DNA from: an uncultured Streptococcus sp.
GTDB taxonomy: Bacteria > Bacillota > Bacilli > Lactobacillales > Streptococcaceae
Length of the DNA stretch: 64,000 nucleotides
NCBI RefSeq assembly: GCF_963528215.1
Contig: NZ_CAURVL010000010.1
Location: 6,472-70,471 of the forward strand
Direction of reading: 5' to 3'
Shown: in pieces, positions 9,611 through 27,548 of the stretch
Position numbering within the stretch: position 1 is the stretch's first letter
How the letters are laid out: each line of letters opens with the position of its first letter
Position numbers and translations under genes: made by a program
Notes under the pieces: generated by a model
Databases searched by the model: none
Seen by the model: the letters and a program-made list of their open reading frames with translations, nothing else
What the model was told of the DNA's origin: nothing

Positions 9611-10321
9611 ATGGCAACAAGTTTTTTGTTCTTTATTTCTGTTTTTCTGGCGGGGATTCTATCTTTTTTCTCGCCCTGTATTTTACCGCTTATGCCAGTC
9701 TATGTGGGGATTTTGCTGGATTCTGATCAGCCGAAAACAGTTCGATTTATGGGAAGAGACATTTCCTGGTATGGTCTAGCTAAGACGCTCTGCTTTATAG
9801 CTGGCTTATCAACTGTATTCTTGGTTTTAGGCTACGGAGCTGGCGCTCTAGGGCAAGTCCTTTATGCCCCTTGGTTTCGCTATGTTCTGGGCGGGATTGT
9901 CATTCTACTGGGAATCCACCAGATGGGAATCATTAATATCCAGCAGCTGCAAAAGCAGAAAAGTATGCAGTTTAAGAAGGATGGGAATCGGAGTGATTTT
10001 CTTAACGCTTTTCTCTTGGGTATTACCTTTAGCTTTGGTTGGACGCCCTGTGTGGGACCTGTTCTGAGTTCTGTTTTAGCAATTGCAGCTTCTGGAGGTA
10101 ACGGCGCTCTTCAAGGCGGTTTGCTTATGTTGGTTTATACTTTGGGCTTATCGCTTCCTTTTTTAGCTATGGCTTTGGCTTCCGGCTGGGTATTACAGCG
10201 ATTTGCGAAACTCAAACCTTATATGGGAATGCTTAAGAAAATAGGCGGTTTCCTCATTATTCTAATGGGAATTTTGCTAATGCTGGGAAATCTCAACATC
10301 CTAGCATCGTTATTTGGATAA
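9611..10321 (+). CDS. ccdA: CcdA membrane electron transporter, copy 1
   Basis: SFFSPCILP and GWTPCVGP cysteine motifs. Confidence 0.93.
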   Translation: MATSFLFFISVFLAGILSFFSPCILPLMPVYVGILLDSDQPKTVRFMGRDISWYGLAKTLCFIAGLSTVFLVLGYGAGALGQVLYAPWFRYVLGGIVILLGIHQMGIINIQQLQKQKSMQFKKDGNRSDFLNAFLLGITFSFGWTPCVGPVLSSVLAIAASGGNGALQGGLLMLVYTLGLSLPFLAMALASGWVLQRFAKLKPYMGMLKKIGGFLIILMGILLMLGNLNILASLFG

Positions 10322-10348
10322 AAATTATATAATCAAAGGAGTCACACC

Positions 10349-10669
10349 ATGAAAAAAATTACTACACTTACAATCGCTGCACTTAGTATCTTTGTCCTAG
10401 CTGCCTGCTCTAATCAAAAATCAGATTCTGATATGAAGAAGATGGATGACAGCAGCATGATGAAGAAGGATGATATGAAAAAAGACGACATGAAGAAGGA
10501 GGATATGAAAGACTCTAGCATGTCTGATGATAAAATGAAAAAGGATGATATGAAGGACTCTTCTATGATGTCCGACAGTAAGTCTGATATGAAAGATGAT
10601 ATGAAATCAAGTGATTCAAGCATGAAGGATGAAATGAAAGATTCATCCGAAATGTCATCTGACAAATAA
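10349..10669 (+). CDS. methionine-rich repeat lipoprotein (MxKDx-like pentapeptide repeats)
   Basis: Lipobox LAAC (Cys20); mature chain almost entirely M/K/D/S, 17 Met in 87 residues; RBS aaggag. Confidence 0.85.
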   Translation: MKKITTLTIAALSIFVLAACSNQKSDSDMKKMDDSSMMKKDDMKKDDMKKEDMKDSSMSDDKMKKDDMKDSSMMSDSKSDMKDDMKSSDSSMKDEMKDSSEMSSDK

Positions 10670-10739
10670 GAATTCCACCATAGGAAAGAAAGTCGTCAAT
10701 TTTGTCGGCTTTCTCCTTATTTTGAGAGGAAAGAAAACG

Positions 10740-11303
10740 ATGAAAAAATTATCCATTTTAACTGTTAGTCTGCTTTGTGCAGGCTTACTGGGAGCTTGCT
10801 CAAATCAGAAAATGAACTCGGAAATTTCTAAAAGTGATAAAAGCAATATGCAAACAAAAGCTGATTCTGAGCAATCTATCAAGATGGCCAAGGACTTTAG
10901 TCTGCAAGGAGTAGACGGCAAGACCTACAAGCTGTCTGATTTCAAAGGCAAGAAAGTCTATCTAAAGTTTTGGGCTTCTTGGTGCTCTATCTGTCTATCC
11001 ACACTTGGAGATACCAATGATTTGGCTAAGGAGCAGTCAGGAAAAGATTATGTTGTCCTATCGGTGGTGTCTCCAACTTTTAACGGAGAAAAGTCTGCCG
11101 ATGATTTCAAGGAATGGTATAAGTCTTTAGATTACAAAGACTTCCCAGTTCTCATGGACACCAAGGGAGAATTGCTGAAAGAATACGGTATTCGCTCTTA
11201 TCCATCTGCTCTTTTTGTTGGCAGCGATGGTTCACTTGCCAAGACACATATTGGCTACATGAGCAAGGAAGATATTGAGAAAACACTAAAGGAAATCAAG
11301 TAG
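10740..11303 (+). CDS. TlpA-family thioredoxin-like lipoprotein
   Basis: Lipobox LGAC; FWASWCSIC; cis-Pro loop SYP. Confidence 0.92.
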   Translation: MKKLSILTVSLLCAGLLGACSNQKMNSEISKSDKSNMQTKADSEQSIKMAKDFSLQGVDGKTYKLSDFKGKKVYLKFWASWCSICLSTLGDTNDLAKEQSGKDYVVLSVVSPTFNGEKSADDFKEWYKSLDYKDFPVLMDTKGELLKEYGIRSYPSALFVGSDGSLAKTHIGYMSKEDIEKTLKEIK

Positions 11304-11312
11304 AAAGGTGCA

Positions 11313-12428
11313 ATGAACATGGAAGGAAAATGGAAAATTCTTCTGGTTATGCTTGGCTTGCTTGTCTGCTTTGGACTTGTCTATGTGATTGCAGGAAATG
11401 GTAAGCAATCATCTCCAGAACAGATCAAGAAAGCATCTATGAGTAAGACAGAAGCTGTATCCCAACAAAAGCAAGAAGACGTTAAGGAAGAAGATAAGCG
11501 GGAGATTTATCTGGCTGGCGGCTGTTTCTGGGGCGTAGAGGAATATTTTTCTCGTGTGCCTGGTGTACTTGATGCAGTGTCAGGCTACGCCAATGGTAAA
11601 GATGATACAACCAAGTATGAGTTAGTCTCTCAAACTGGTCACGCTGAGACTGTTCACATCACTTATAATGCCAAGAAAATTTCGCTAAAAGAAATTCTGC
11701 TTCACTATTTCCGCATCATTGATCCAACTTCTAAAAACAAGCAGGGAAATGATCAGGGTACCCAGTATCGGACAGGCGTCTACTATACGGATGAAGCTGA
11801 TCTTGATACTATTAATCAGGTCTTTGATGAAGTTGCTAAGAAGTACGACAAGCCTTTAGCTGTTGAAAAAGAACCTCTGAAAAACTTTATCAAGGCAGAA
11901 GATTATCATCAGGATTACCTAAAAAAGAATCCTAATGGATATTGCCATATTGATGTCAATCAAGCTGCTTACCCAGTTATCGAAGCTAGTCGCTATCCTA
12001 AGCCTAGCGATGAAGAGATTAAGGCTAAGCTCTCGCCAGAAGAATACGCAGTCACACAAAAGAATGACACAGAGCGGGCCTTTTCTAACCGCTATTGGGA
12101 TAAGTTCGATGCTGGTATCTATGTGGATGTGGTGACAGGCGAGCCTCTCTTTTCATCAAAGGATAAGTTTGACTCAGGCTGCGGTTGGCCCAGTTTCACC
12201 CGTCCTATCAGTCCAGATGTTGCAACTTACAAGGAAGACAAGAGTTTCAATATGACTCGAACGGAAGTTCGTAGTCGGGTTGGAAATTCCCATCTGGGCC
12301 ATGTTTTCACTGATGGCCCTAAGGACAAGGGAGGCTTGCGCTACTGCATCAATAGTCTGTCAATTAAGTTCATTCCAAAAGCTGAGATGGAGGAGAAAGG
12401 CTACGGTTATCTTTTAGATTATGTTTAA
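11313..12428 (+). CDS. msrAB: membrane-anchored methionine sulfoxide reductase MsrAB
   Basis: N-terminal TM segment; GGCFWG (MsrA); SGCGWPSF and RYCINS (MsrB). Confidence 0.97.
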
Positions 12429-12487
12429 GAGCATTTTCCTTGAAAATTTGCTATAATAAGTCCAGTATAAATAAGGAGTTGAATCTT

Positions 12488-13222
12488 GTGTATTCAATTA
12501 TGATTGTAGAGGATGAGTATCTGGTAAGACAGGGGATTGCGTCCTTGGTAGACTATGAACAGTTTGGTATGCAAGTTATTGCTCAGGCTGAAAATGGAAG
12601 AGAAGCTTGGCAGAAATTTCAGGAAAATCCTGCTGACATTCTGCTGACCGATATCAATATGCCACAGATGAACGGCCTCGAACTGGCCAAGCTAGTCAGA
12701 GACCAAGCTCCTAAGTGCCATATCGTTTTTCTGACGGGCTATGATGATTTTGACTATGCTCGGACTGCCATTAAGCTAGGTGCAGATGACTATCTTCTCA
12801 AGCCATTTTCCAAGGATGATGTTGAGGAAATGTTGGCCAAGCTGCAGATCAAGCTTGATAAGGAACGTAAAAAAGCTCAGATTCAAAACTTGGTCGATCA
12901 GGGACAGCAATCTGAGTTGGAAGAGGCTATTCATGCGCGTCTATCAGATTCAGAATTAAGTCTGAAAAGTTTGGCTTTCCAATTGGGGTTTAGTCCGTCC
13001 TACCTTAGCGTTCTTATCAAAAAAGAATTAGGTCAGCCCTTTCAGGATTATCTGATACAAGAGCGGATGAAAAAAGCAAAACTCTTACTCTTAACTACAG
13101 ATTTGAAGATTTATGAAATAGCAGAGCAGGTAGGTTTTGAAGATATGAACTATTTTTCTCAGCGCTTCAAGCAAGTTGTTGGGCTGACACCTCGGCAGTT
13201 TAAAAAAGGAGAGGAGAAATGA
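12488..13222 (+). CDS. two-component response regulator, receiver plus AraC HTH (YesN-like)
   Basis: EDE, TDINMP, YLLKP; C-terminal IAEQVGFEDMNYFSQRFK; GTG start after aaggag; TGcTATAAT upstream. Confidence 0.93.
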   Translation: MYSIMIVEDEYLVRQGIASLVDYEQFGMQVIAQAENGREAWQKFQENPADILLTDINMPQMNGLELAKLVRDQAPKCHIVFLTGYDDFDYARTAIKLGADDYLLKPFSKDDVEEMLAKLQIKLDKERKKAQIQNLVDQGQQSELEEAIHARLSDSELSLKSLAFQLGFSPSYLSVLIKKELGQPFQDYLIQERMKKAKLLLLTTDLKIYEIAEQVGFEDMNYFSQRFKQVVGLTPRQFKKGEEK

Positions 13223-14922
13223 AACGATATCCGCTTCTTATCCAGTTGATTGTCTATATTTTTCTGCTGGTTCTTTTACTCTTGGGGGTTGTTGGGAGTC
13301 TTTACTATCAGACTAGCTCGGAGACTATTCGACAGCTGACAGAGCGGACGACGCGTAATAGTATGGAGCAAAGCGGCCAGTTCATTGCTTCCTATTTGCA
13401 AAAATTAAAGCAAACTACATCTACACTGAGTAAGGAAGAAACGATTCGGAAGTTTGCTCAGAATCAAGAAAACAGCGAAATGTCAGTTCAGTCTTTGATG
13501 AAAACCATTATTGAGACAGATCCGGATTTGGTGTCAGCAGTTTTGGTTACCAAGGACGGGCGCGTGGTATCGACAGATACTCAAATCAGCATGCAGACAT
13601 CTTCTGATATGATGAATGAAAAATGGTATCAGGAAGCGGTTCATACCAGAGCCATGCCTGTCTTGACTCCTGCTCGCAAGGAGTCTCTATCATCAGAGAA
13701 GGAGAAGTGGGTTGTTTCCGTCACTCAGGAAGTGGTGGATGAAGCAGGGCAGAATCTCGGTGTTTTGCGCCTGGATATCGGCTACAATAGTCTCAAAGCC
13801 TATCTGGATAGGCTTCAGCTAGGAAAGAAGGGCTTTAGCTTTATTGTCAATAGCCAGCATGAATTTGTCTATCATCCTAAGAAGAGTGTTTATTCATCCA
13901 GTCAGGAAATGAAAGCGATGCAGCCCTATATCTCAGTCAAGGACGGTTACGCAGACCAGAAACAGGCTTTCGTCTACCAGATTGATATTGCGGACAGCGA
14001 CTGGACTTTAATTGGCGTCGCTTCATTAGAGCAGTTGCAGATGCTTCAGTCACAGATGCTTTATTCTTTTGTGGGAATGGGCATTTTAGCACTCCTGCTG
14101 TGCTTGACTGGTATTTGGTTTGTTCTGCGTTTGTGGATTAAGCCTCTGCAGAATCTGCAGGCTGTCATTCTGAAGATTGGGGCAGGTGACTCAAACCTTC
14201 GGGCAGAAGCAAAGGGTTCTCCAGAGTTGGTTGACTTGGCTCAGCAGTTCAATAAAATGCTGGACCAGATTGAACAGCTAATGGAAGCTGTCAAGACTGA
14301 AGAACAAAATGTTCGCCGCTATGAGCTCCGAGCTCTCTCAGCTCAAATCAACCCTCATTTCCTTTATAATACCTTAGATACTATTGTCTGGATGGCTGAA
14401 TTTAACGACAGCAAGCGTGTTGTTGAGGTAACAAAATCACTCGCTCAGTATTTCCGCTTAGCGCTTAATCAAGGGCACGAACAGATTTCTCTTAGAGATG
14501 AGATTGATCACGTTCGTCAGTATCTCTTTATCCAGAAGCAGCGCTATGGTGACAAGCTCCAATATGAGATTGAAGAGGATGAATCCATAGCTGATTATAA
14601 ACTGCCCAAGCTGGTACTTCAGCCTTTGGTTGAAAATGCCATCTACCATGGCATCAAGGAAATTGACCGACAGGGCATGATTCGCGTTACTGCGGCAGCA
14701 GAAGAGGGGCAGCTGATATTATCTATCTATGATAATGGCCGAGGCTTTGAACTCCAAAATTCAGTGGACAAGACCCTTCTTCGCTTAGGTGGAGTTGGTC
14801 TGAAAAATGTCGATCAACGATTAAGATTGCAGTTCGGAGACGACTACCATATGGAAATCCAGTCCGAACCAGATAAATTTACCCAGATTAGTCTTTATTT
14901 GCCACTAGTTACAGATGATTAG
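13219..14922 (+). CDS. sensor histidine kinase (YesM-like; Cache, HAMP, His_kinase)
   Basis: QINPHFLYNTL, LQPLVENAIYHG, DNGRG; two TM segments. Confidence 0.93.
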   Translation: MKRYPLLIQLIVYIFLLVLLLLGVVGSLYYQTSSETIRQLTERTTRNSMEQSGQFIASYLQKLKQTTSTLSKEETIRKFAQNQENSEMSVQSLMKTIIETDPDLVSAVLVTKDGRVVSTDTQISMQTSSDMMNEKWYQEAVHTRAMPVLTPARKESLSSEKEKWVVSVTQEVVDEAGQNLGVLRLDIGYNSLKAYLDRLQLGKKGFSFIVNSQHEFVYHPKKSVYSSSQEMKAMQPYISVKDGYADQKQAFVYQIDIADSDWTLIGVASLEQLQMLQSQMLYSFVGMGILALLLCLTGIWFVLRLWIKPLQNLQAVILKIGAGDSNLRAEAKGSPELVDLAQQFNKMLDQIEQLMEAVKTEEQNVRRYELRALSAQINPHFLYNTLDTIVWMAEFNDSKRVVEVTKSLAQYFRLALNQGHEQISLRDEIDHVRQYLFIQKQRYGDKLQYEIEEDESIADYKLPKLVLQPLVENAIYHGIKEIDRQGMIRVTAAAEEGQLILSIYDNGRGFELQNSVDKTLLRLGGVGLKNVDQRLRLQFGDDYHMEIQSEPDKFTQISLYLPLVTDD

Positions 14923-14945
14923 GTCTATTAAGTTTTAAAATATTC

Positions 14946-14973
14946 AAGCCGGCAGAATTTTCTCCGGCTTTTT
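14946..14973 (+). terminator. terminator after histidine kinase
   Basis: aagccgg...ccggctt followed by T run. Confidence 0.7.
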
Positions 14974-15142
14974 ACTGTTTGAAAAAATGCACTGGTTTTG
15001 CTGTTCATCAAGCGAATTTTTCTCTTTTTCTACTCTCATGAATTTGCAAAAAAATTACCGTAGCGGATTTGTGAAAAATCTATAAGATTCATTTATAATG
15101 ATAAGTGAATGTTTATTCTACGTAGTAGTTAGAGGAGAGAAA

Positions 15143-15850
15143 ATGGAATCACCTTTATTTTTTGTTTCAGTTTTTTTAGCTGGTATTTTGTCCTTCTTTT
15201 CCCCTTGTATTTTTCCCTTATTGCCGGTTTATATTGGCATTTTATTGGATGACAAGGAGGTCAAGACCCTGAAAGTATTTGGCCGGGAGCTTGCTTGGCA
15301 AGGCATGGTTAGGACACTCTTTTTCATTGCGGGCATCTCGACAGTCTTCTTTTTGCTAGGCTTTGGGGCAGGCTTTCTAGGAACAATTATTTACAGTTCG
15401 ACCTTTCGTTATGTGATGGGAGGCCTCATCATTCTGCTAGGTCTGCATCAGATGGAACTAATTAATATTCGCCAGTTACAGATTCAAAAGAGTTTGACTT
15501 TCAAAAAGAATGGCCAGAAACATCATTTTTGGTCTGCTTTCTTACTGGGGATTACCTTTAGTTTTGGTTGGACTCCCTGCATTGGTCCGATTCTCAGCTC
15601 AGTCTTGGCCTTAGCAGCTTCGGGTGGGAATGGTGCTTTTCAGGGAGCGATTCTGACCTTGATTTACACTTTGGGAATGGCTCTGCCTTTCTTAATCTTG
15701 GCTTTGGCATCCAGCTTTGTTATGCAGTATTTCAATAAAATCAAGCCTTATATGGGCCTGATGAAGAAAATCGGCGGAGCCCTGATTATTTTGATGGGAA
15801 TTCTGCTGATGCTAGGACAGCTCAACGCCCTGTCTGGACTTTTTGGATAA
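15143..15850 (+). CDS. ccdA: CcdA membrane electron transporter, copy 2
   Basis: SFFSPCIFP and GWTPCIGP; paralog of 9611-10321; ATG after agaggag. Confidence 0.93.
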   Translation: MESPLFFVSVFLAGILSFFSPCIFPLLPVYIGILLDDKEVKTLKVFGRELAWQGMVRTLFFIAGISTVFFLLGFGAGFLGTIIYSSTFRYVMGGLIILLGLHQMELINIRQLQIQKSLTFKKNGQKHHFWSAFLLGITFSFGWTPCIGPILSSVLALAASGGNGAFQGAILTLIYTLGMALPFLILALASSFVMQYFNKIKPYMGLMKKIGGALIILMGILLMLGQLNALSGLFG

Positions 15851-15865
15851 AAAGGAGAAAGAAAT

Positions 15866-16441
15866 ATGAAAAAAATCGTTACTTTATTAGCAACTGTTTC
15901 AGCAGTGGTCTTTTTGGCAGCCTGCTCGGAACAGGAAGAGAAGCCCATGACTATGCCCACAACCAGCAGTTCATCTAGTGAGACCCCTCTGACAAGTACT
16001 GTCACCCAAGCAGCTGTCGGTCAAGAGGCACCTGACTTTACTCTGCAATCTATGGATGGAAAAACAGTCAAACTTTCTGACTACAAAGGCAAGAAAGTTT
16101 ATCTAAAATTCTGGGCTTCTTGGTGCGGACCTTGTAAGAAGAGTATGCCAGAATTGGTCGAATTGGCTGGTAAAACAGATCGTGATTTTGAAATCTTGAC
16201 AGTTGTAGCACCAGGTCTCCAAGGAGAGAAATCTGTCGAGGAATTTCCAAAATGGTTTCAAGAACAAGGTTATAAAGATGTACCAGTTCTATTTGACACT
16301 TCAGGAGAAATTTTCCAAGCCTATCAGATCCGCAGTATCCCGACTGAAATCCTCATTGACAGTCAAGGGAAAATCGGTAAAATCCAGTTTGGAGCTATCA
16401 GTAATGCTGATGCAGAAGCAGCTTTCAAAGAAATGAAATAA
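15866..16441 (+). CDS. TlpA-family thioredoxin-like lipoprotein, copy 2
   Basis: Lipobox LAAC; FWASWCGPC. Confidence 0.92.
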   Translation: MKKIVTLLATVSAVVFLAACSEQEEKPMTMPTTSSSSSETPLTSTVTQAAVGQEAPDFTLQSMDGKTVKLSDYKGKKVYLKFWASWCGPCKKSMPELVELAGKTDRDFEILTVVAPGLQGEKSVEEFPKWFQEQGYKDVPVLFDTSGEIFQAYQIRSIPTEILIDSQGKIGKIQFGAISNADAEAAFKEMK

Positions 16442-16450
16442 AGCAAAAAA

Positions 16451-16625
16451 GAGGCTGGGACAAAAGTCCTAGCCTCTCAATTGTCTTTGGATTGTCGAGC
16501 AAGACGCAGTGGTTGAGTGGGCTCTACTACGCTGATTTCATCAGCTTTCACAGCCCTACTCAACTGTGCGGAGGTGGGACGACGAAATCGAATCCTAACG
16601 AATTACCGATTTCTGTCCCACTCTC
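16451..16625. repeat. ~175 bp multi-hairpin intergenic element (streptococcal interspersed repeat, MITE/SPRITE-like)
   Basis: Imperfect terminal inverted repeats gaggctgggaca / tgtcccactctc, three internal stem-loops, flanked by A and T runs between convergent genes. Family name is from memory. Confidence 0.7.
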
Positions 16626-16644
16626 TTTTTAGTTTGTAATGTGA

Positions 16645-17889
16645 TTAAGCGCTAGCACCTGATGTTGCATCAGCTCCTCCGTCTCCATGACCTCCATCGC
16701 CCCCAGCATCAGAAGCACCAGAAGTAGCGTCTGCGTCTCCATGACCTCCGGCAGGAGCAAATGGTCCGCTGCCTCCAACCAAACGTTGGCCAGTTTCTTT
16801 TAAGTACCAGTCAAGCCATGGTTGGAAATTAAAGACGATTTCATTGATTCCTGCGTATGATCCGTCAGGATAGTACATAGCTTGGTAGTTATGGGTATTG
16901 ATAACACCTGCAGGTGAACCAGGGACGATTGTACGAACGTATTCTTGGTTTCCGTTGCGAAGCGTTCCGATAACCCACTCTACATTTTTCATCCGAGCTG
17001 GTGGGAGAGAACCATGAACGGTTGACATGCGGCTACCTGATTGAGGTGGCACACGTTTAGCAAACATGGTGTCTGGGTCTTGGTGGGCGTTGTTGTAGTA
17101 GAGGAATTGGTTGTTATCGTCAGCGTATGTCAATTCAAATGGCATAGCTTTTAAGAACATATCAATTTGATTAACAGTCAAGATACCATGGTCAAGTTTG
17201 ACATAAGTATCGCCTGAAACAGCACCAGTGATTTCAGCGACTTTTTCCACCCATTCTGGATCATCTGGATCAACTTCTGTAATTGTCGTAGCGATTGGCT
17301 TTCCGCAGTCTAAGTCTTCAGGTTCAATTGGTTTTGGTTTTTTCAATTTTGAAACGACCTCTACATATTTGATAAAGTTATCTAAGCATGTTTCAAGGAA
17401 ATTCACAGTTCCTTCGTTGGTAATATTACCATCATTGTCAAAAGCTTCCTTGGCTTTGCCCAGCAAGAACTCATTGCCTGGGAGGGTGTAAGCATTGACG
17501 CCAGGAGCATCTAGGATTTTACGTAGGTGAACTTGAGCACGGGAAGTTCCTTGGTCGTAGTAAGAAGCACCGACAATCATGACAGGCTTGTTTTCGAAAG
17601 GATGAACCTCGTAAGAGAGCCATTCTAAGACACTCTTCAAAGGAGCGCTGATAGTATGATTGTGCTCAGGGGTTGCGATGATGACACCGTCTGCACGTGT
17701 GATTTTGTTATACAAATACCGCAATTGGAAGCTTTCATCCCATTTTTCATCCTGGTTAAACATTGGGACTTCATCGATTTCTAAGACTTCCAATTCAAAT
17801 TTAATTTTGAACTGACGACGGATGAATTCCAATAATTTTCGGTTATATGATTGTTCGTAGTTTGATCCTACAATTCCAACAAATTTCAT
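16645..17889 (-). CDS. NAD(P)H-dependent FMN reductase fused to a PAS-like domain and a tail with two DATSGAS motifs
   Basis: GIVGS, ATPEHN flavodoxin-like fold; MPFELTYADDNNQFLYYN PAS-like segment; Gly/Asp-rich tail. Confidence 0.88.
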   Translation of the reverse strand: MKFVGIVGSNYEQSYNRKLLEFIRRQFKIKFELEVLEIDEVPMFNQDEKWDESFQLRYLYNKITRADGVIIATPEHNHTISAPLKSVLEWLSYEVHPFENKPVMIVGASYYDQGTSRAQVHLRKILDAPGVNAYTLPGNEFLLGKAKEAFDNDGNITNEGTVNFLETCLDNFIKYVEVVSKLKKPKPIEPEDLDCGKPIATTITEVDPDDPEWVEKVAEITGAVSGDTYVKLDHGILTVNQIDMFLKAMPFELTYADDNNQFLYYNNAHQDPDTMFAKRVPPQSGSRMSTVHGSLPPARMKNVEWVIGTLRNGNQEYVRTIVPGSPAGVINTHNYQAMYYPDGSYAGINEIVFNFQPWLDWYLKETGQRLVGGSGPFAPAGGHGDADATSGASDAGGDGGHGDGGADATSGASA

Positions 17890-17906
17890 TCTTTCAGTCT
17901 CCTATC

Positions 17907-18512
17907 TTACAATTTTTCCCAATTAAATTCTTCAGCATCTTTGCGAAGCAATTCTTGTGCGTTGCGCAATTTTTCAGTGATTTTGACAAAGATACGGAAG
18001 TCATCAAAGATAGCATCCAATTTTTTTACAACGTCAAGATCTACCAAGTCTCCGCTTTGGTCAAATGCTTGAAGAGAATGTGAAAGCAAGAACTCATCTG
18101 GAAGAACAGTTGCCTTGATTTCTGGAGCGTTCAAAATTTGACGGAGCTGCAATTGGGCACGAGAGGAGCCAAGTGTACCATAAGAAGCACCAGTGATCAT
18201 GACCGGCTTGTTCAGCAGTGGATAAATACCATAAGAAAGCCAAGCCAGAGCATTCATGAGCACAGCTGGGATAGAATGGTCGTATTCAGGTGTGCCGATA
18301 AGTACGCCATCCGCAGCATCGATTTTTTCGGCAATTTCTGATACCAACTCAGGGACGTTTCTGTCAGCAGGTTTATTAAACATTGGGATATCTTTAATCT
18401 CAACCAGCTCGATTTCAGCCTTGTCAGCGAAGTGCTTAGACATATATTGAAGAAGTTGCCGGTTTGTAGAACGGTTAGAATTTGTTCCAACAATTGCAAT
18501 AAGTTTTAACAT
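17907..18512 (-). CDS. NAD(P)H-dependent FMN reductase
   Basis: AIVGT, GTPEYD, GASYGTLGSSRAQ. Confidence 0.92.
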   Translation of the reverse strand: MLKLIAIVGTNSNRSTNRQLLQYMSKHFADKAEIELVEIKDIPMFNKPADRNVPELVSEIAEKIDAADGVLIGTPEYDHSIPAVLMNALAWLSYGIYPLLNKPVMITGASYGTLGSSRAQLQLRQILNAPEIKATVLPDEFLLSHSLQAFDQSGDLVDLDVVKKLDAIFDDFRIFVKITEKLRNAQELLRKDAEEFNWEKL

Positions 18513-18680
18513 AAAATTTCCTTTCTGAAATTAAGATACAGAGCCCTCGTGTGTGCATTTATTTTTCTTTAGGCAAGTAAAACCTAGAAGAAAGAGAGAG
18601 CGTTTTTAAATGGGCATGTTTATAAAAGCTAGAGCGATAGTGTTACCGCTTAGTGTGGCAGCAAATTTATCACTTTTGAA

Positions 18681-19616
18681 TTAAGAAGCAGGAATTATCT
18701 GCTCTAAAAGGCCTGAGCTGAAGAAGAGCTGACTGTCTTGGGTGATAATCAGGGCTTCAATCCCTGCTTGCTCTTCAATCTGAGACAGAATCGATGTCGG
18801 ACTTTCGCCAAATAAACGAGTTGTCCAGATTTCGCCATCTACCGACTTGTCTGAAACAATGGTCAGACTAGCTAATCGATTTTCGATAGGATAGCCTGTT
18901 TTGCGATCCAGAATGTGATGGTAGTTCTGCCCCTCAACTGTAAGGGTTCGCTCGTAGATTCCTGATGTGACCACTGACTGATTGGTGACAGCAAGTATAG
19001 CTGAGTGATTGCCGCGTAACAGCTTGGGATTTTGGATGCCAATCCGCCAGGCGCGCTGGCTGACTGCATTTTGCCCAATGGTTAGTACATTGCCACCAAG
19101 ATTGATAAGAGCAGAAGTCACTCCCTGACTCAGCAAATAGTCCTTAATCTTATCAGCGATATAGCCTTTAGCCAAGGCGCCTAGATCCAGTTTCATGCCT
19201 TTCTTAGCCAAAAAGACACTACGGTCTTCTGGATTCAGCTCAAGCAAGTTTGGGTCAGTCAGGCTCAGAGCTTGCTGAATCTCCTCTGTACTTGGGAGAC
19301 GGGCGTCTGAAAATCCTATCCGCCAGGTCTGGACTAGAGGGCCGATTGTGATATTTAAGTGGCTGCCTTCTGCTAGGCTGTGATATTTTCCCAGCTCAAT
19401 CAGCTCAAAAAGCTCTGGATGAACTGAGACACTTTTAATTCCTGCCAAATGGTTGATAGTCATAAGTTCAGAGTCTTCATCATTGGCACTAAAGCGATTT
19501 TTATAGACATGAAGCAGTTGGACCGCCTCATCTAAGAGTATTTCCGCTCGCTCATGATAGAGAGAGATGCAAATAGTACTCCCCATCAAATGAAGCGAGC
19601 GAGAAGCAAAGTCCAC
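18681..19616 (-). CDS. apbE: FAD:protein FMN transferase ApbE, no signal peptide
   Basis: MGS near N-terminus, DLGALAKGY, NLGGNV, TSGIYER, YHHILD. Confidence 0.93.
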   Translation of the reverse strand: MDFASRSLHLMGSTICISLYHERAEILLDEAVQLLHVYKNRFSANDEDSELMTINHLAGIKSVSVHPELFELIELGKYHSLAEGSHLNITIGPLVQTWRIGFSDARLPSTEEIQQALSLTDPNLLELNPEDRSVFLAKKGMKLDLGALAKGYIADKIKDYLLSQGVTSALINLGGNVLTIGQNAVSQRAWRIGIQNPKLLRGNHSAILAVTNQSVVTSGIYERTLTVEGQNYHHILDRKTGYPIENRLASLTIVSDKSVDGEIWTTRLFGESPTSILSQIEEQAGIEALIITQDSQLFFSSGLLEQIIPAS

Positions 19617-19809
19617 ATTATCACAACCTTTCTAAAATTAACCTCTCTAACCTTATTATATCAAAAAGATACCGGTTTCACAATCTTAAATTTGTTATAT
19701 TTTCAGAAAATGAAACTTCGCAAAAAGTAGTTTTTCTGAGGTATTTAGACTGCAATGGTACAGCTTTTTAGGTAGTCTAAGAATTTTTGAAAATTTCGAG
19801 CAAATTTCT

Positions 19810-19823
19810 TGTAAACGCTCACA
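19810..19823 (+). promoter_or_regulatory. cre (CcpA) site upstream of nox
   Basis: TGTAAACGCTCACA fits TGWAANCGNTNWCA. Confidence 0.65.
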
Positions 19824-19874
19824 GGAGATGATATACTTGTCTAGTAAATTATAAATTAAGGTAGGACTATTCTT

Positions 19875-21251
19875 ATGAGTAAAATCGTTGTAGTTGGTGC
19901 AAACCACGCAGGTACAGCGTGTATTAATACAATGTTGGATAATTATGGTGCAGAAAATGAAGTAGTTATTTTTGACCAAAACTCAAACATTTCATTCTTG
20001 GCATGCGGAATGGCCCTTTGGATTGGACAGCAAATCAGCAAGCCAGATGGACTTTTTTATGCAGACAAAGAAACTTTTGAAGCAAAAGGCGCAAAAGTTT
20101 ATATGAATTCACCAGTTGAGTCAATTGATTATGATGCGAAAAAAGTTACAGCTATCGTTGATGGCAAAGAGCATGTAGAGTCTTATGACAAATTGATTTT
20201 AGCAACAGGTTCTCAGCCAATTCTGCCTCCGATTAAAGGTGCTGAGCTGGATCCTAACAGCCGCGAATTTAAGTCAACCTTAGAAAATCTGCAGTTCGTA
20301 AAATTGTATCAAAATGCTGCAGATGTTATTGAAAAATTGCAAGACAAGAGCAAACATATTGAACGTGTGGCAGTAGTAGGTGCTGGCTACATTGGGGTTG
20401 AGTTGGCAGAAGCCTTCAAACGTCTTGGTAAAGAAGTGATTCTGATTGATGTTGTGGATACTTGCTTGGCTGGTTATTATGACCACGACTTGTCTGATAT
20501 GATGCGCCAAAACCTTGAAGACAATGGTGTTCAATTAGCCTTCGGTCAAACTGTTCAGGCTATTGAGGGTGAAAGCAAAGTAGAACGCATTGTAACAGAT
20601 AAGGCTAGATATGATGTAGATATGGTTGTCTTAGCAGTTGGCTTCCGTCCAAACACTGGTCTTGGTGCTGGCAAGTTGGAAACATTCCGCAATGGTGCTT
20701 TCTTGGTGGATAAGAAGCAAGAAACTAGCATCAATGATGTTTATGCAATTGGTGACTGTGCGACTGTCTACGATAACTCTATCAATGATACAAACTATAT
20801 CGCCTTGGCTTCTAACGCTCTGCGCTCTGGTATCGTAGCAGCTCATAATGCTTGTGGTCATGAATTGGAATCAAACGGTGTTCAAGGTTCTAATGGTATC
20901 GAAATCTTTGGTCTGAAGATGGTTTCAACTGGTCTGACAGAAGAAAAAGCTAAACGCTTTGGTTACAGCCCAGCTGTGGTTGAGTTTAAAGACACTCAAA
21001 AACCAACCTTCCTTGAAAAGGTTGAGCATCATGATGTTACAATCAAGATTGTCTATGATAAGGACACTCGTGTAGTTCTTGGAGCTCAGATGGTTTCTAG
21101 AGAAGATATGTCTATGGGGATTCACATGTTCTCATTGGCCATTCAGGAAAAGGTTACAATTGATAAATTGGCCTTGCTGGATCTTTTCTTCCTGCCACAC
21201 TTCAACAAACCATACAACTACATTACTCAAGCAGCTTTGCGCGCTAAATAA
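19875..21251 (+). CDS. nox: NADH oxidase (H2O-forming type)
   Basis: GANHAG, SFLACG redox Cys, [15 protein letters not shown]. Confidence 0.92.
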
Positions 21252-23075: not shown

Positions 23076-23948
23076 ATGAAAAAACTTGGCATCGTCCTAT
23101 TTTCAACGGCAATTTTACTGACTGGCTGTGCAGCCAACAACTCTTCAAACAAGACTGGCTCAAGCAGTCAAGCATCCAGCAGCCAAACTGCTGTCAATCA
23201 GAAAGAATTGGACAAGGCGACAGCGGATTATAAATCTTTTGTCCAAGGACAAATCGATCAACTCCTGACAGATACGGAGAAATTTCGTGATACCCTTAAA
23301 GAAGGCAAGCTTGATGAAGCTAAAAAGCAGTATCCGCTTATCCGGATGGCCTACGAGCGCTCGGAGCCGATTGCTGAGAGCTTTGGTGAATCAGATGTTA
23401 AAATTGACTTCCGCTTAGTCGACTATGTGGACGAAAACAAGACCGAAGAAGGCTGGTCTGGTTTCCACCGCATTGAAAAAATCATGTGGGAGCAAAATAC
23501 AACCAAGGGCACTGAAAGCTATGCCGATCAGCTGGTTAACGATATCAAGGAGCTAAAGGCTAAAATCGCAACGTTTGAAGTGACTCCGGATATGATGTTG
23601 ACAGGCGCTGTTGACTTGCTCAATGAAGTGGCGACCAGCAAGATTACAGGTGAGGAAGAAGTATTCTCTCATACAGATCTCTATGATTTCCGAGCAAATA
23701 TTGAAGGAGCAGAAAAGATTTTTGAGCTCTTCAAGCCATTAATTAAGGACAAGGATGAGAAGCTTGTCAAGACCTTGGAACTTGAGTTTAAAAATGTAAA
23801 CAGTCTCCTAGACAAGCACATGACTGACTCGGAAAACTACAAACTCTATACAGAATTGACAAAAGAAGACACCAAGGAGTTGGCGGAAGCTGTTACCAAA
23901 CTGGGTGAGCCTCTTTCACAAATGGGAGTCATTCTAAACGGGGAGTGA
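23076..23948 (+). CDS. efeO: iron uptake lipoprotein EfeO (imelysin/M75 domain)
   Basis: Lipobox LTGC; YERSEPIAE, GFHRIE, KITGEEEVFSHTDL. Confidence 0.93.
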   Translation: MKKLGIVLFSTAILLTGCAANNSSNKTGSSSQASSSQTAVNQKELDKATADYKSFVQGQIDQLLTDTEKFRDTLKEGKLDEAKKQYPLIRMAYERSEPIAESFGESDVKIDFRLVDYVDENKTEEGWSGFHRIEKIMWEQNTTKGTESYADQLVNDIKELKAKIATFEVTPDMMLTGAVDLLNEVATSKITGEEEVFSHTDLYDFRANIEGAEKIFELFKPLIKDKDEKLVKTLELEFKNVNSLLDKHMTDSENYKLYTELTKEDTKELAEAVTKLGEPLSQMGVILNGE

Positions 23949-23952
23949 TCTT

Positions 23953-25161
23953 ATGACAAACGACGAAAAATGGTTTAATAAAAAGATGGATCGTCGTGAA
24001 TTTCTTAAAAAAGCAGGGATTGGAGGCGCTGGTCTTGCACTGGGTGTCTCTGGTGCATCTGCTTTTTTAGCTAATCAGGCGAAGGAAGATAAGAAATTCG
24101 CTGACGGTGAGGAAAAAATCAGCTTCTACGGGGAGCATCAGGCGGGTATCACAACTCCGATGCAGAAGAATATCTACTTTGTTGTCTTGGATTTGCATAC
24201 GACAGATAGGGAGACAATTATCCAGCTCTTCAAGGACTGGACAGCCTATAGCGAGAAGCTAGTCAATGGAGAATTGGTCAAAAAAGATAATTCAAATGCC
24301 CTTTTGCCGCCAACGGATACTGGTGAAACTGTCGGTCTCAACCCTTACCGATTGACCTTGACCTTCGGTGTCTCAGCCTCTTTTCTGAAAAAAATGGGCT
24401 TATCAGACAAACGACCGAAGGCTTTTCGGGATTTGCCGCCTTTTCCAAAGGAGCAGCTCAAAGAAAAATATACGGGTGGCGATATTGTCATCCAGGCCTG
24501 CGCGGATGATGAGCAGGTAGCCTTTCATGCGGTCCGCAATCTGGTCCGCAAGGGGAGAAATGCCATCACTATGAAGTGGAGTCAGTCAGGCTTTGCTGCT
24601 ATCGGAGACCGGATGTCAACGCCTCGTAATCTCTTTGGATTTAAGGACGGCACGGCCAATGTGACCAAGGAAAAAGATTTTGACAAGGTCATTTGGTGCG
24701 ACAGCAAGGACTGGATGCAGGGCGGCTCTTACATGGCTGTCCGCCGGATCCAGATGTTCCTTGAGACCTGGGACCGGACCAATCTGCAGGAACAGGAAAA
24801 CACTTTTGGCCGCTATAAAGATAGCGGAGCGCCTTTTGGCAAGAAAGACGAGTTTGACGAGGTTGACTTAGACTTGCTGCCAGAGGATTCACATGTCCGT
24901 CTGGCCAAGGAAGTTGATAAGCCCATATATCGCCGGTCTTACTCTTACTCAGATGGGATTGATGAGAGTACTGGTCAGTTCGACACAGGCTTACTCTTTC
25001 TTTCCTTCCAGAAAGATCCAGACAGCTTTGTCAAAGTTCAGACCAATCTAGGCGCTCAAGATAAGATGAATGAATACGTCACACATGTCGGCAGTGGCTT
25101 GTTTGCTTGCTTTGGTGGAGTGAAAAAAGGAGAGTACCTTGGTCAAAAATTATTTGAATAA
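23953..25161 (+). CDS. efeB: Tat-exported DyP-type peroxidase EfeB
   Basis: Twin-arginine signal DRREFLK; HQAGI, GFKDGT, DSHVR. Confidence 0.95.
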   Translation: MTNDEKWFNKKMDRREFLKKAGIGGAGLALGVSGASAFLANQAKEDKKFADGEEKISFYGEHQAGITTPMQKNIYFVVLDLHTTDRETIIQLFKDWTAYSEKLVNGELVKKDNSNALLPPTDTGETVGLNPYRLTLTFGVSASFLKKMGLSDKRPKAFRDLPPFPKEQLKEKYTGGDIVIQACADDEQVAFHAVRNLVRKGRNAITMKWSQSGFAAIGDRMSTPRNLFGFKDGTANVTKEKDFDKVIWCDSKDWMQGGSYMAVRRIQMFLETWDRTNLQEQENTFGRYKDSGAPFGKKDEFDEVDLDLLPEDSHVRLAKEVDKPIYRRSYSYSDGIDESTGQFDTGLLFLSFQKDPDSFVKVQTNLGAQDKMNEYVTHVGSGLFACFGGVKKGEYLGQKLFE

Positions 25162-26827
25162 AAGTCTCTTGATTTTGGGGCTCTTGCTGGTCTTTTTGCC
25201 TAAGCCGGTTTTAGCGGACGAGAGCTACAGCAGTTTATTCGTCAAAATTACTGATGCCAGCACTGCAGTCAAGCAGAAGGACCAGGAAAAAGCCAAGCAG
25301 CTAGTCGGAGAAATCAAGACTGACTTTGAAAAGGTGGCTAATCACGACTCTGCAGCGGGACAAGAGGTAAGTAAGGCGCTAGACTTATCGGGTCAGGTGA
25401 CGGAGGAGAAGCTGACACAGATTTCTTCTGCCCTCTTGAAATTTGAGAAAGAGCAGAATCCAGTCGACCTAGAGACCGAGAAAAAGAAGCTTATAAGTAA
25501 GCTAGAGCCAAAATTTGAAAATCTACAAAAGGCTATTAGAGCTAAGGATTTAGAAGCAACGAGAGAAGCTTATAAGAAGATGAATAGCACTTGGACCAGC
25601 AATGAAAGCGTGGTGCGAGACAACAGCACAGCTCATTACGGTAAGGTGGAAACAGCTATTTCATTTCTGCGCAGCGCCATCGAGACGGAGCCTACTGACT
25701 TTGACATGATTCAGTCTTCTTTTGATGATTTGAAAACCGCCATTTATAATTTTGTCAAAGGAGAGAAAGTCCAAGAAGCTGCTGGCAATCTGACGCTGAA
25801 AGATGGGATTAAGCTGCTAGAGGAGGCTTTGAGTCTCTTCCAAAGCGGCGATGATAAAAAGGCCGCTGCTAAGATGAAAGAATTCATCACCATTTGGCCA
25901 ACGATAGAAGGAGATGTCAGTGTCAATAATCCTTCGCTTTATACCAAGGTTGAGAGTCAGACACCTGTTATTATGGTCAAGGGGAGCGAAGAGAAGTATC
26001 AAAAGCAGCTGGAATCCTTGATTAGTGAGCTGTCACAGATTGACACAACAGCTTCCTATCATTTCTTTGATGCTATGCTGATTTTGCTGCGTGAGGGTGT
26101 AGAAGCGCTCTTAATTGTCATGGCTTTGATAACGACTCTGAAAGCCTCCAAGATGAAAAAAGGACTCAAATGGGTTTATGCCGGAGCAGCGAGTGGGGTT
26201 CTAGCCAGTGCTGTGATTGCAGCTTTGCTGCAGTTTCTTTTCCCAGCAGTTTCTTCTGGATCCAATCGTGAGATTATCGAGGGTGCAGTGGGTATTTTCG
26301 CTGTCGCCATGATGATATTGGTTGGTATCTGGCTGCATAGCAAGGCATCTATTGAGAAATGGAATGACTTTATGGAAAGTCAAATGAAGGCTGTAACAGC
26401 CACAGGGAGTTTTCTTTCCATGTTTGCTCTTAGCTTTCTGGCAGTTTTCCGTGAAGGGGCTGAGACCATCCTCTTTTATGTAGGAATTCTGCCGCGTATC
26501 ACTATGACTGATTTCCTTTTGGGAATCGGCTTGGCTCTTCTGGTCTTGGTCTTGCTGGCATTTATAATGAGTAAGGCTTCAGGTCTTCTCAAGCCACACA
26601 GCATTTTCTTCTGGCTGACCTGGCTAATCTATGCTCTTGCCTTTAAAATGCTGGGCGTCAGCATCCATGCCCTTCAGCTGACCAATATCCTACCGACTCA
26701 CCTAATCAATGGCTTTGTGACAGTAGACTGGATGGGGATTTATCCAAGCCTAGAAGTGGTAGTTAGTCAGGCTTTCTTTATCCTTCTGGTTGTCTATGTT
26801 AGCTTTAAAAATCAGAGAAGCGAGTAG
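25139..26827 (+). CDS. efeU: FTR1/EfeU iron permease with N-terminal extracellular domain
   Basis: Two REGxE motifs (REGVE, REGAE); signal peptide; C-terminal TM helices. Confidence 0.9.
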   Translation: MVKNYLNKSLLILGLLLVFLPKPVLADESYSSLFVKITDASTAVKQKDQEKAKQLVGEIKTDFEKVANHDSAAGQEVSKALDLSGQVTEEKLTQISSALLKFEKEQNPVDLETEKKKLISKLEPKFENLQKAIRAKDLEATREAYKKMNSTWTSNESVVRDNSTAHYGKVETAISFLRSAIETEPTDFDMIQSSFDDLKTAIYNFVKGEKVQEAAGNLTLKDGIKLLEEALSLFQSGDDKKAAAKMKEFITIWPTIEGDVSVNNPSLYTKVESQTPVIMVKGSEEKYQKQLESLISELSQIDTTASYHFFDAMLILLREGVEALLIVMALITTLKASKMKKGLKWVYAGAASGVLASAVIAALLQFLFPAVSSGSNREIIEGAVGIFAVAMMILVGIWLHSKASIEKWNDFMESQMKAVTATGSFLSMFALSFLAVFREGAETILFYVGILPRITMTDFLLGIGLALLVLVLLAFIMSKASGLLKPHSIFFWLTWLIYALAFKMLGVSIHALQLTNILPTHLINGFVTVDWMGIYPSLEVVVSQAFFILLVVYVSFKNQRSE

Positions 26828-26831
26828 CAGC

Positions 26832-27548
26832 ATGGATAAAAAAGAACAGACTATTATTGAGCATTTGACAGAGTTCAGGCGGCGTTTTCTAGCGGTATTG
26901 GCTTGTTTTTTCGTGGTTTTTCTGGTTAGCTTGCTCTTTTCGGCCGATATTTATCGATGGCTGACTAGTAATTTTGAGAATAAGCTGCTGGTGCTGGGGC
27001 CGGATGATATCCTTTGGATTTATATCAGTCTGGCTAGTCTGGTCGCTTTTTCCCTGACCTTGCCATTTTTGGTTTATCAGGTCTGGGAGTTTGTTCGACC
27101 GGCTTTGCGAGCTAATGAAGCACGAGCTGTTTTCGCTTATATCCCGGCTACCTTTATCTGTTTTGTTCTTGGTTTGGCTTTCGGCTTTTACTTTGTGACT
27201 CCGGCTATTTTACAGGTGTTGCTGTCGCTGGGGGAGGGTCTCTTTGAGACTCGGCTGACAGCACAGAATTATCTTAGTTTCGTCTTTCATACCACTATTC
27301 CGATTGCATGCCTTTTTGAGCTGCCAGTTCTTGTGTCCTTTCTGACTTCTATCGGTTTGCTCAATCCGAAATTTTTGGTAAAATATAGACGATACGCTTA
27401 CTTTATTTTGCTCGTTTTAGCTGTTGTCCTGACACCGGCCGACTTTATCAGCGACTTGTCTATGACAGTGCCTCTGATTTTGCTCTATGAAGTCAGCATC
27501 CTGCTCAGTCGCATCATTTATCAAAGAAAATCAACGAGGAGAAATTAA
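26832..27548 (+). CDS. tatC: twin-arginine translocase TatC
   Basis: EHLTEFRRR, YQVWEFVRPAL, FELPV, LTPADFISD. Confidence 0.95.
   Translation: MDKKEQTIIEHLTEFRRRFLAVLACFFVVFLVSLLFSADIYRWLTSNFENKLLVLGPDDILWIYISLASLVAFSLTLPFLVYQVWEFVRPALRANEARAVFAYIPATFICFVLGLAFGFYFVTPAILQVLLSLGEGLFETRLTAQNYLSFVFHTTIPIACLFELPVLVSFLTSIGLLNPKFLVKYRRYAYFILLVLAVVLTPADFISDLSMTVPLILLYEVSILLSRIIYQRKSTRRN

Follow-up and report, generated by a model that had tools for sequence, protein, structure and literature searches.

A signal-less ApbE, a two-subunit FMN reductase and a PAS_10 module with a predicted flavin-acceptor tail: a candidate cytoplasmic flavin relay of streptococci

What does an ApbE enzyme, which transfers flavin mononucleotide (FMN) from flavin adenine dinucleotide (FAD) to protein, modify when it stays in the cytoplasm, and what are the attached flavins for? 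The question is raised by a locus of an uncultured Streptococcus sp. (NCBI RefSeq assembly GCF_963528215.1, contig NZ_CAURVL010000010.1, positions 6,472 to 70,471, a stretch of 64,000 nucleotides referred to here as the window), where the genes for a signal-less ApbE, an FMN reductase subunit (A) and a second subunit (B) that carries a PAS_10 module and a tail with two acceptor motifs lie in tandem (Table 1). Relatives that are 99-100% identical bear the label Streptococcus sanguinis, and a scan of genome contigs gave matches in close streptococci only. Judging from matches to B in 186 of 201 streptococcal genomes (reductase-only matches included), the apbE-A-B unit appears to be near-universal in streptococci. 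The PAS subfamily had matches in 150 of 301 Lactobacillales genomes (weak sister-family matches included), and in a 401-genome sample of the phylum its matches were confined to the two streptococci. Despite this distribution, the unit has no assigned function. The chances are about even that it forms a cytoplasmic relay from reduced nicotinamide adenine dinucleotide (NADH) to covalent flavin, in which the tail FMNs act as mobile carriers between the A/B dimer and the PAS module or O2.

Table 1. Features of the apbE-A-B locus, with positions in the window
Feature	Position	Strand	Description
apbE	18681..19616	-	311 aa, PF02424 ApbE; signal-less FAD:protein FMN transferase
FMN reductase subunit A	17907..18512	-	201 aa, PF03358
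Subunit B: FMN_red - PAS_10 - acceptor tail	16645..17889	-	414 aa
FMN_red domain of B	17449..17889	-	residues 1-147, PF03358
PAS_10 core of B	16825..17166	-	residues 242-355, PF13596
Low-complexity tail of B, predicted disordered	16648..16770	-	residues 374-414, pLDDT < 50
Acceptor motif 1, DATSGAS	16711..16731	-	residues 387-393; predicted FMN site Ser393
Acceptor motif 2, DATSGAS	16651..16671	-	residues 407-413; predicted FMN site Ser413
Operon promoter, extended -10, sigma-70-like	19655..19683	-	predicted; RNA coverage starts just downstream
cre-like site	19667..19680	.	overlaps operon -35; 1 mismatch to a CcpA consensus
nox, H2O-forming NADH oxidase	19875..21251	+	NF046103; divergent from the apbE unit

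An earlier note on this DNA had described a trio of genes for ApbE, a 201-residue FMN reductase and a 414-residue FMN reductase-PAS fusion, with DATSGAS motifs at 16711-16731 and 16651-16671. The open reading frames and their Pfam domains bear out the trio, and translation bears out both motifs. The two copies use different codons and match the ApbE consensus at each defined position, and the predicted FMN site of the second, Ser413, is one residue from the C-terminus. The AlphaFold2 model of B gives both domains with confidence (mean predicted local distance difference test score, pLDDT, 86) and leaves residues 374-414 disordered. The two motifs are not due to chance. A six-frame scan of the genome, comprising 5,337 stop-to-stop frames of at least 80 residues, yielded four matches to the strict motif Dxx[ST]GA[ST], two in the B tail and the others in short frames (82 and 105 residues), and none in any other long open reading frame; when the tail was shuffled 200,000 times, two motifs arose in 4.5e-5 of the shuffles.

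Comparison of homologues indicates that the acceptor motifs are under selection. Of the best 120 among 1,406 matches, all but one (119) carry the strict motif in the tail, 103 of them more than once. A second set of 100 regions (L141-L240) was picked without sight of the tails, 97 from an order-wide search (the 150 best of 218 matches) and three from a genus search, with most near-identical streptococci skipped. It contains 102 PAS proteins scoring above 60 bits, 88 fused to a reductase and 14 non-fused. For this set the motif was relaxed to Dxx[ST][GS]A[ST]; Ser at the Gly position (DxxSSAS) is a proven acceptor in FRDg of Trypanosoma brucei (10.1101/2020.12.30.424822). Relaxed motifs are present in 87 of the 88 fused proteins, in numbers from one to seven and most commonly three, the strict motif being found in 74, and 13 of the 14 non-fused proteins have one to three in the tail. 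The 100 homologous tails hold 261 relaxed motifs, compared with a mean of 1.6 (maximum 9) in 1,000 shuffles, and 904 open reading frames neighbouring these loci hold five in all. Tail geometry, counted on 98 of the 102 PAS proteins (the other four lack an anchor or a motif), is constrained at both ends: the final acceptor lies one to five residues from the C-terminus in 97/98, and the first lies at least 14 residues past the conserved Gly that closes the PAS module, at exactly 14 in 39/98 and at 26 in the window. Motif spacing is always at least nine residues, and the linkers vary freely. Some tails also contain degenerate repeats, DxxASAS and DADTGS[ST] (L212:5796-7169; L298, L300, L304), which keep the terminal Ser/Thr and may widen the ApbE consensus.

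The window ApbE has no lipobox. Its Pfam domain begins at residue 11, and the reading frame is closed by stops a short way upstream, so that no signal peptide has been missed and the signal-less enzyme described earlier is confirmed. Its PF02424 domain has the FAD-binding and His motifs, H234 presumably being the catalytic His, and the core ApbE motifs are invariant. Among the fused homologues, apbE lies within 3 kb of the fused gene in 74 of 88 loci and is co-oriented in 73; all adjacent ApbEs of these linked loci begin at the catalytic domain and are signal-less on inspection of the N-terminus. For 10 of the 14 unlinked cases a signal-less ApbE is encoded elsewhere in the genome (10/10 retrieved were signal-less). 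The earlier note had proposed surveying homologues for motif conservation and apbE linkage, and both have come out in favour of its claim. The window genome, which is 90% complete, yielded a single ApbE, no FMN_bind domain among the matches and no full-length FAD_binding_2 reductase, the matches to the latter being short and of Rossmann type. The B tail is thus the sole credible ApbE substrate found in this genome. The same signal-less clade adjoins genes for CrdAB-type FMN_bind-FAD_binding_2 reductases and OYE/FMN_bind genes. Separately, L268, L269, L270 and L284 have a signal-less apbE in divergent orientation to an OYE-like gene and to one that encodes two acceptor motifs, a further context for cytoplasmic flavinylation.

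Motif conservation, apbE linkage, the lack of another substrate in the genome as recovered and experiments on relatives together give good support to cytoplasmic flavinylation, and the B tail in the window is very probably flavinylated. What the earlier note offered as inference, flavinylation of an unstructured tail, had by then been shown for FMN_red proteins of Lactococcus (PMC11334425), and cytoplasmic ApbEs were likewise known (reviewed in PMC12052999).

Both reductase subunits have intact flavin-binding loops, and A has no acceptor motif. By sequence, A falls with the A subunits of CrdAB-type reductases and B with their B subunits. The loops and this grouping make it probable that NADH is oxidised by the A/B dimer by way of non-covalent FMN. 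The tailed single-gene FMN_red proteins of the Lactococcus type form a separate clade related to A and B.

The PAS_10 module is the less familiar part of B. In 81 aligned PAS homologues Met275 and His292 never vary and Arg279 is present in 80, a pattern suggestive of a bound cofactor or ligand. The closest fold is that of 2QKP (Z 15.8, root-mean-square deviation 2.0 A over 137 residues), followed by 3CAX (Z 13.8), and heme PAS domains (Aer2, FixL, DosP) tie with flavin PAS domains (NifL, LOV) at Z 7-8, so these fold searches did not tell apart the type of ligand. A search of the ESM Atlas returned PAS_10 clusters only.

The gene arrangements of homologues bear on which domain the tail serves. 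In 4/4 Lactobacillus loci the fredA-fredB genes are untailed and share their orientation with a signal-less apbE that follows two or three genes further on, and the stand-alone PAS proteins of Lactobacillus (244-250 residues) mostly have three motifs. One of these, a 244-residue, 28.0-kDa protein of Lactobacillus johnsonii with three acceptor motifs, is probably LjPAS of strain N6.2, going by species, size and family. Sequence comparison therefore places the tail with the PAS module, and not with the reductase, in these split systems, and overall the tail accompanies PAS as often as reductase. PAS-plus-motif units also occur in tandem arrays (L207, P0123, P0226), in predicted lipoproteins that consist of the PAS module and one motif (L225:5873-6577, L231:5911-6633) or combine the module with an FMN_bind domain (L178:5951-7150, L188, P0124), and in signal-less fusions of at least two FMN_bind domains, PAS_10 and a further tail motif (L319:1135-2460, L331:583-2223). 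The lipoproteins of L225, L231, L178 and P0124 are candidate new extracytosolic ApbE substrates.

Other features of these loci were noted in passing. The order in L344, L345, L346 and L347 is fredA-fredB, one or two genes and then a signal-less apbE, whose metal-ligand helix is altered (AEIECKR). In L294, apbE lies between two small PAS genes with five and three motifs, and the DNA retrieved around them contains no reductase. A tailed single FMN reductase, apbE and then a motif-less PAS gene is the order in L304 and L305. An XRE/Rgg-like helix-turn-helix regulator is found in 30 of 100 loci (L194:3030-3902 and 29 others) and a DUF454 membrane protein in 12 of 100 (L166:3503-3892 and 11 others); outside streptococci, no other gene recurs next to the unit. 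The idea of a linked terminal reductase was considered and dropped, since FAD_binding_2 genes are not conserved as neighbours and one was seen in a single case (L220).

The relay may be pictured in four steps. Signal-less ApbE would very likely transfer FMN from FAD to Ser393 and Ser413 of B, a reaction with precedent in Lactococcus relatives. Subunit A would pair with the N-terminal domain of B in an asymmetric dimer, an NADH:flavin reductase that has non-covalent FMN sites of its own, as shown for FRedAB and CrdAB. The tethered FMNs would be captive substrates, reduced at the dimer and carried by the flexible tail, which would take over the job of the folded FMN_bind domain in CrdB. Electrons might then pass to the PAS_10 module or leak to O2, the weakest of the steps. 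Mobile carriers on the tail are the simplest account of all the architectures observed, and the tethered-arm role suggested in the earlier note remains plausible. Homologues in which the genes are split or rearranged speak for it; a published pocket-filling model is its competitor. When the PAS module (B 186-372) was modelled in complex with A, B(1-183) and two FMN, the prediction scored 0.01, against a mark of 0.32 to be reached, which is evidence neither way.

In a broader reading, lactic acid bacteria have in the PAS_10 subfamily a terminal redox module that has gone unrecognised and is fed by ApbE-attached flavins. It would take the place held by FAD_binding_2 in Crd/Frd systems, and would be deployed both in the cytoplasm, fused to or in trans with an NADH:flavin heterodimer, and on cell-surface lipoproteins. 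This is tentative, and we would not at present expect it to hold. If it did, LjPAS would be a tri-flavinylated physiological substrate of FRedAB that has so far been studied as the apo form only, and the enzyme it serves is the main H2O2 maker of L. johnsonii.

Several observations weigh against the relay. The His/Met/Arg residues of the PAS module are present in most motif-less sister proteins as well. Tails occur without PAS in the Lactococcus single genes and in L265 and L266, and on decayed PAS modules that lack the His in L321 and P0267; conversely, motif-less PAS genes occur in L304 and L305 (beside apbE), L323 and L324. LjPAS slowed the activity of FRedAB in vitro and did not accept electrons from it (PMC4500961), but it had been made in Escherichia coli and was probably unflavinylated in that assay. 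In the window ApbE, Glu262 replaces the Mg-binding Asp284 of the Treponema pallidum enzyme, and the same Glu is found in 22/22 aligned signal-less copies. Listeria ApbE was added to the Lactococcus lysates in the assay of Huang et al. (PMC11334425), so that activity of the signal-less clade was not cleanly demonstrated there. In the model of the same paper the reductase takes up the FMN of its tail in its own pocket; B has two motifs, which would be just enough for the two pockets that a heterodimer has.

That last point leads to the alternative that survives best, in which the two tail FMNs are the reductase cofactors themselves, one for each A/B pocket, tethered so that flavin is not lost (Huang et al. 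2024). The PAS module would then have a sensory role of its own and adjust assembly or H2O2 output, the role that has been proposed for LjPAS. We consider this unlikely, though it has a published model and experiments on Lactococcus FMN_red tails behind it (PMC11334425), and the tail-less A with a two-motif B in streptococci, the tails that directly follow FMN_red or outlast decay of the PAS module, and the slowing of FRedAB assembly by LjPAS (PMC4500961) all agree with it. The number of motifs does not, ranging from one to seven with three, not two, the commonest. Motifs are also carried by PAS proteins that have no reductase, exported lipoproteins among them, and the tail-less FRedA and FRedB of Lactobacillus bind FMN with a dissociation constant (KD) of about 2 uM and are active when FMN is supplied free (PMC4500961).

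In another alternative, PAS_10 is itself a folded flavin-binding domain. The first FMN of the tail would fold back into or onto it, and the protein would be a redox sensor or carrier with covalent flavin, to which further motifs add beads. The floor of 14 residues between the closing Gly and the first acceptor, reached exactly in so many homologues, speaks for such docking, as do the minimal lipoproteins with one motif (L225, L231), the tandem PAS-plus-motif repeats (L207, P0123, P0226) and the fold shared with flavin-binding PAS domains such as NifL and LOV. The floor could, however, be just the space that ApbE needs, the first acceptor of the window is 26 residues off, the pocket residues are common to motif-less PAS_10 proteins, and the AlphaFold tail, modelled without flavin, is undocked. 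It seems a rather improbable account of B.

That the window ApbE leaves the tail unmodified, its Asp-to-Glu clade being inactive or having another substrate and the repeats being kept for some other reason, is very unlikely: the Glu at the Mg-binding position, the further change at the next ligand position in Lactobacillus ApbE copies, the lack of a clean published test of cognate enzymes and the 90% completeness of the genome, from which another substrate could therefore be missing, speak for it, but the same clade stands beside CrdAB-type FMN_bind-FAD_binding_2 and OYE/FMN_bind genes, for which a transferase in the cytoplasm is required, no variation is seen in the core ApbE motifs, and the repeats fit the consensus throughout.

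Stranded RNA-sequencing reads from a related strain (X21 and X22, two runs of the same study, of which roughly a quarter each was used) map without a break to the expected minus strand through all three genes, over 16735-19726, at a mean depth of ~140-810 per bin with dips where the related strain differs in sequence; the Logan contig runs X5 and X9 were left out of this comparison. Read ends at 19624-19642 lie near the predicted operon promoter. This coverage fits one transcript but does not prove it. Of 80 close loci, 79 have a similar cre-like site ahead of apbE, compared with 8 of 315 background windows. We take SMU.1088-1090 of Streptococcus mutans to be the orthologues of the apbE-A-B unit. 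These genes are reported to go up in a ccpA mutant. The probable physiological role of the unit is NADH reoxidation or redox buffering under CcpA control. No Rex-type operator was found near the operon promoter, and a Rex-like site was present in 11 of 74 distant loci.

The earlier note had also taken the divergent nox gene to point to NADH/O2 handling, an argument that has proved weak. A divergent nox accompanies 78 of 80 close streptococcal loci and none of 100 more distant ones; the linkage is local and thus says little about what the unit does, and it was dropped as a functional clue. In the sampled loci nox is a neighbour in streptococci of the mitis/sanguinis kind only and lies outside the conserved unit. 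A perfect match to a cre consensus lies at window positions 19810-19823 over the -35 of the predicted nox promoter.

On the other side, the B gene is followed by an intergenic repeat of about 175 bp with a terminal hairpin (window 16452-16626), of which the genome has seven near-full copies; the site is empty in the related strain used for RNA sequencing, and Rfam recorded no family in window 16300-20000, the repeat included. Farther out, 9611-16441 holds two ccdA/tlpA sets, msrAB and a two-component system (named by inspection of open reading frames, ccdA and tlpA by Pfam), and 23076-27548 holds an EfeUOB-type iron uptake locus and tatC (also named by inspection).

The unit offers a cheap and direct way to probe cytoplasmic flavinylation at several sites, by a fluorescent band, and allows the pocket-filling and relay models to be compared. 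PAS_10 would enter the short list of ApbE-substrate architectures. The suggestion that earlier LjPAS experiments used unmodified protein bears on the control of H2O2 in gut and vaginal lactobacilli.

Among known systems, the nearest is the class of apbE-linked FMN_red proteins described by Huang et al. (2024), which have an unstructured C-terminal extension with one or two motifs and, in Lactococcus lactis and Lactococcus taiwanensis, carry Ser-dependent covalent FMN (PMC11334425). Cytoplasmic flavinylation of an unstructured FMN reductase tail is therefore already known. Like the Lactococcus proteins, which are also from Firmicutes, B has PF03358, a disordered tail with acceptor motifs (here two DATSGAS) and a co-localised apbE. 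The L. taiwanensis protein (WP_205872264.1, P0321) is a 263-residue product of a single gene with one DADTGAS and no PAS, and is 37% identical to the reductase part of B over 231 aligned residues. Its tail follows FMN_red directly and it was modelled as a homodimer (PMC11334425), whereas in the window PAS_10 intervenes and there is a second reductase gene. PAS, a heterodimer and Streptococcus are absent from the searched passages and Table S1 of that paper.

CrdAB of Vibrio ruber, a cytoplasmic PF03358 heterodimer with NADH:cinnamate reductase activity, provides the precedent for a relay, its covalent FMN (on Ser of DALSGAS) passing electrons from an NADH:flavin dimer to the FAD_binding_2 domain (10.1101/2023.03.04.531086). 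CrdAB, like the HcrAB of lactobacilli, shares with the window tandem PF03358 A and B subunits and an adjacent apbE. The systems differ in that in CrdB the flavin sits on FMN_bind, a folded domain, and FAD_binding_2 forms the end of the protein, whereas B has PAS_10 and the tail in their place, with neither FMN_bind (PF04205) nor FAD_binding_2 (PF00890) detected by Pfam. The FRedA/B (NfrAB) reductase of L. johnsonii is an obligate heterodimer with NADH-dependent flavin reductase activity that forms H2O2; its description notes a PAS-reductase fusion in related species and does not mention ApbE (PMC4500961). Tandem reductases and a PAS_10 partner are common to both systems, split there and fused here.

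FRDg of trypanosomatids (10.1101/2020.12.30.424822) and the cytoplasmic Frd/ApbE of Klebsiella resemble the window in their intracellular ApbE and in an acceptor Ser that is not part of any FMN_bind domain and belongs to a short peptide at the terminus (DGRSSAS), but they are fumarate reductases with a single site, and in trypanosomes ApbE is fused in cis. For the PAS fold, the closest proteins are those with DUF438, hemerythrin and PAS_10 (SMU_1151c, PDB 2QKP; PF0695, 3CAX), which share M-x3-R...HP and differ in the hemerythrin fusion, a Cys before the His and the absence of motifs from all 15 longer proteins of this kind (assigned by eye, one confirmed by Pfam).

No open-access paper was found that joins flavinylation with a PAS domain or with LjPAS, or ApbE with Streptococcus, and papers on Bifidobacterium iron and Porphyromonas gingivalis PG_0686 had nothing on the present system. 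The survey of Meheust 2021 kept secreted flavinylation systems only, and its supplement could list PAS_10; with that proviso, the tie between PAS and ApbE was not found in print. What the window adds beside the 2024 class is a probably heterodimeric reductase together with a PAS_10 module.

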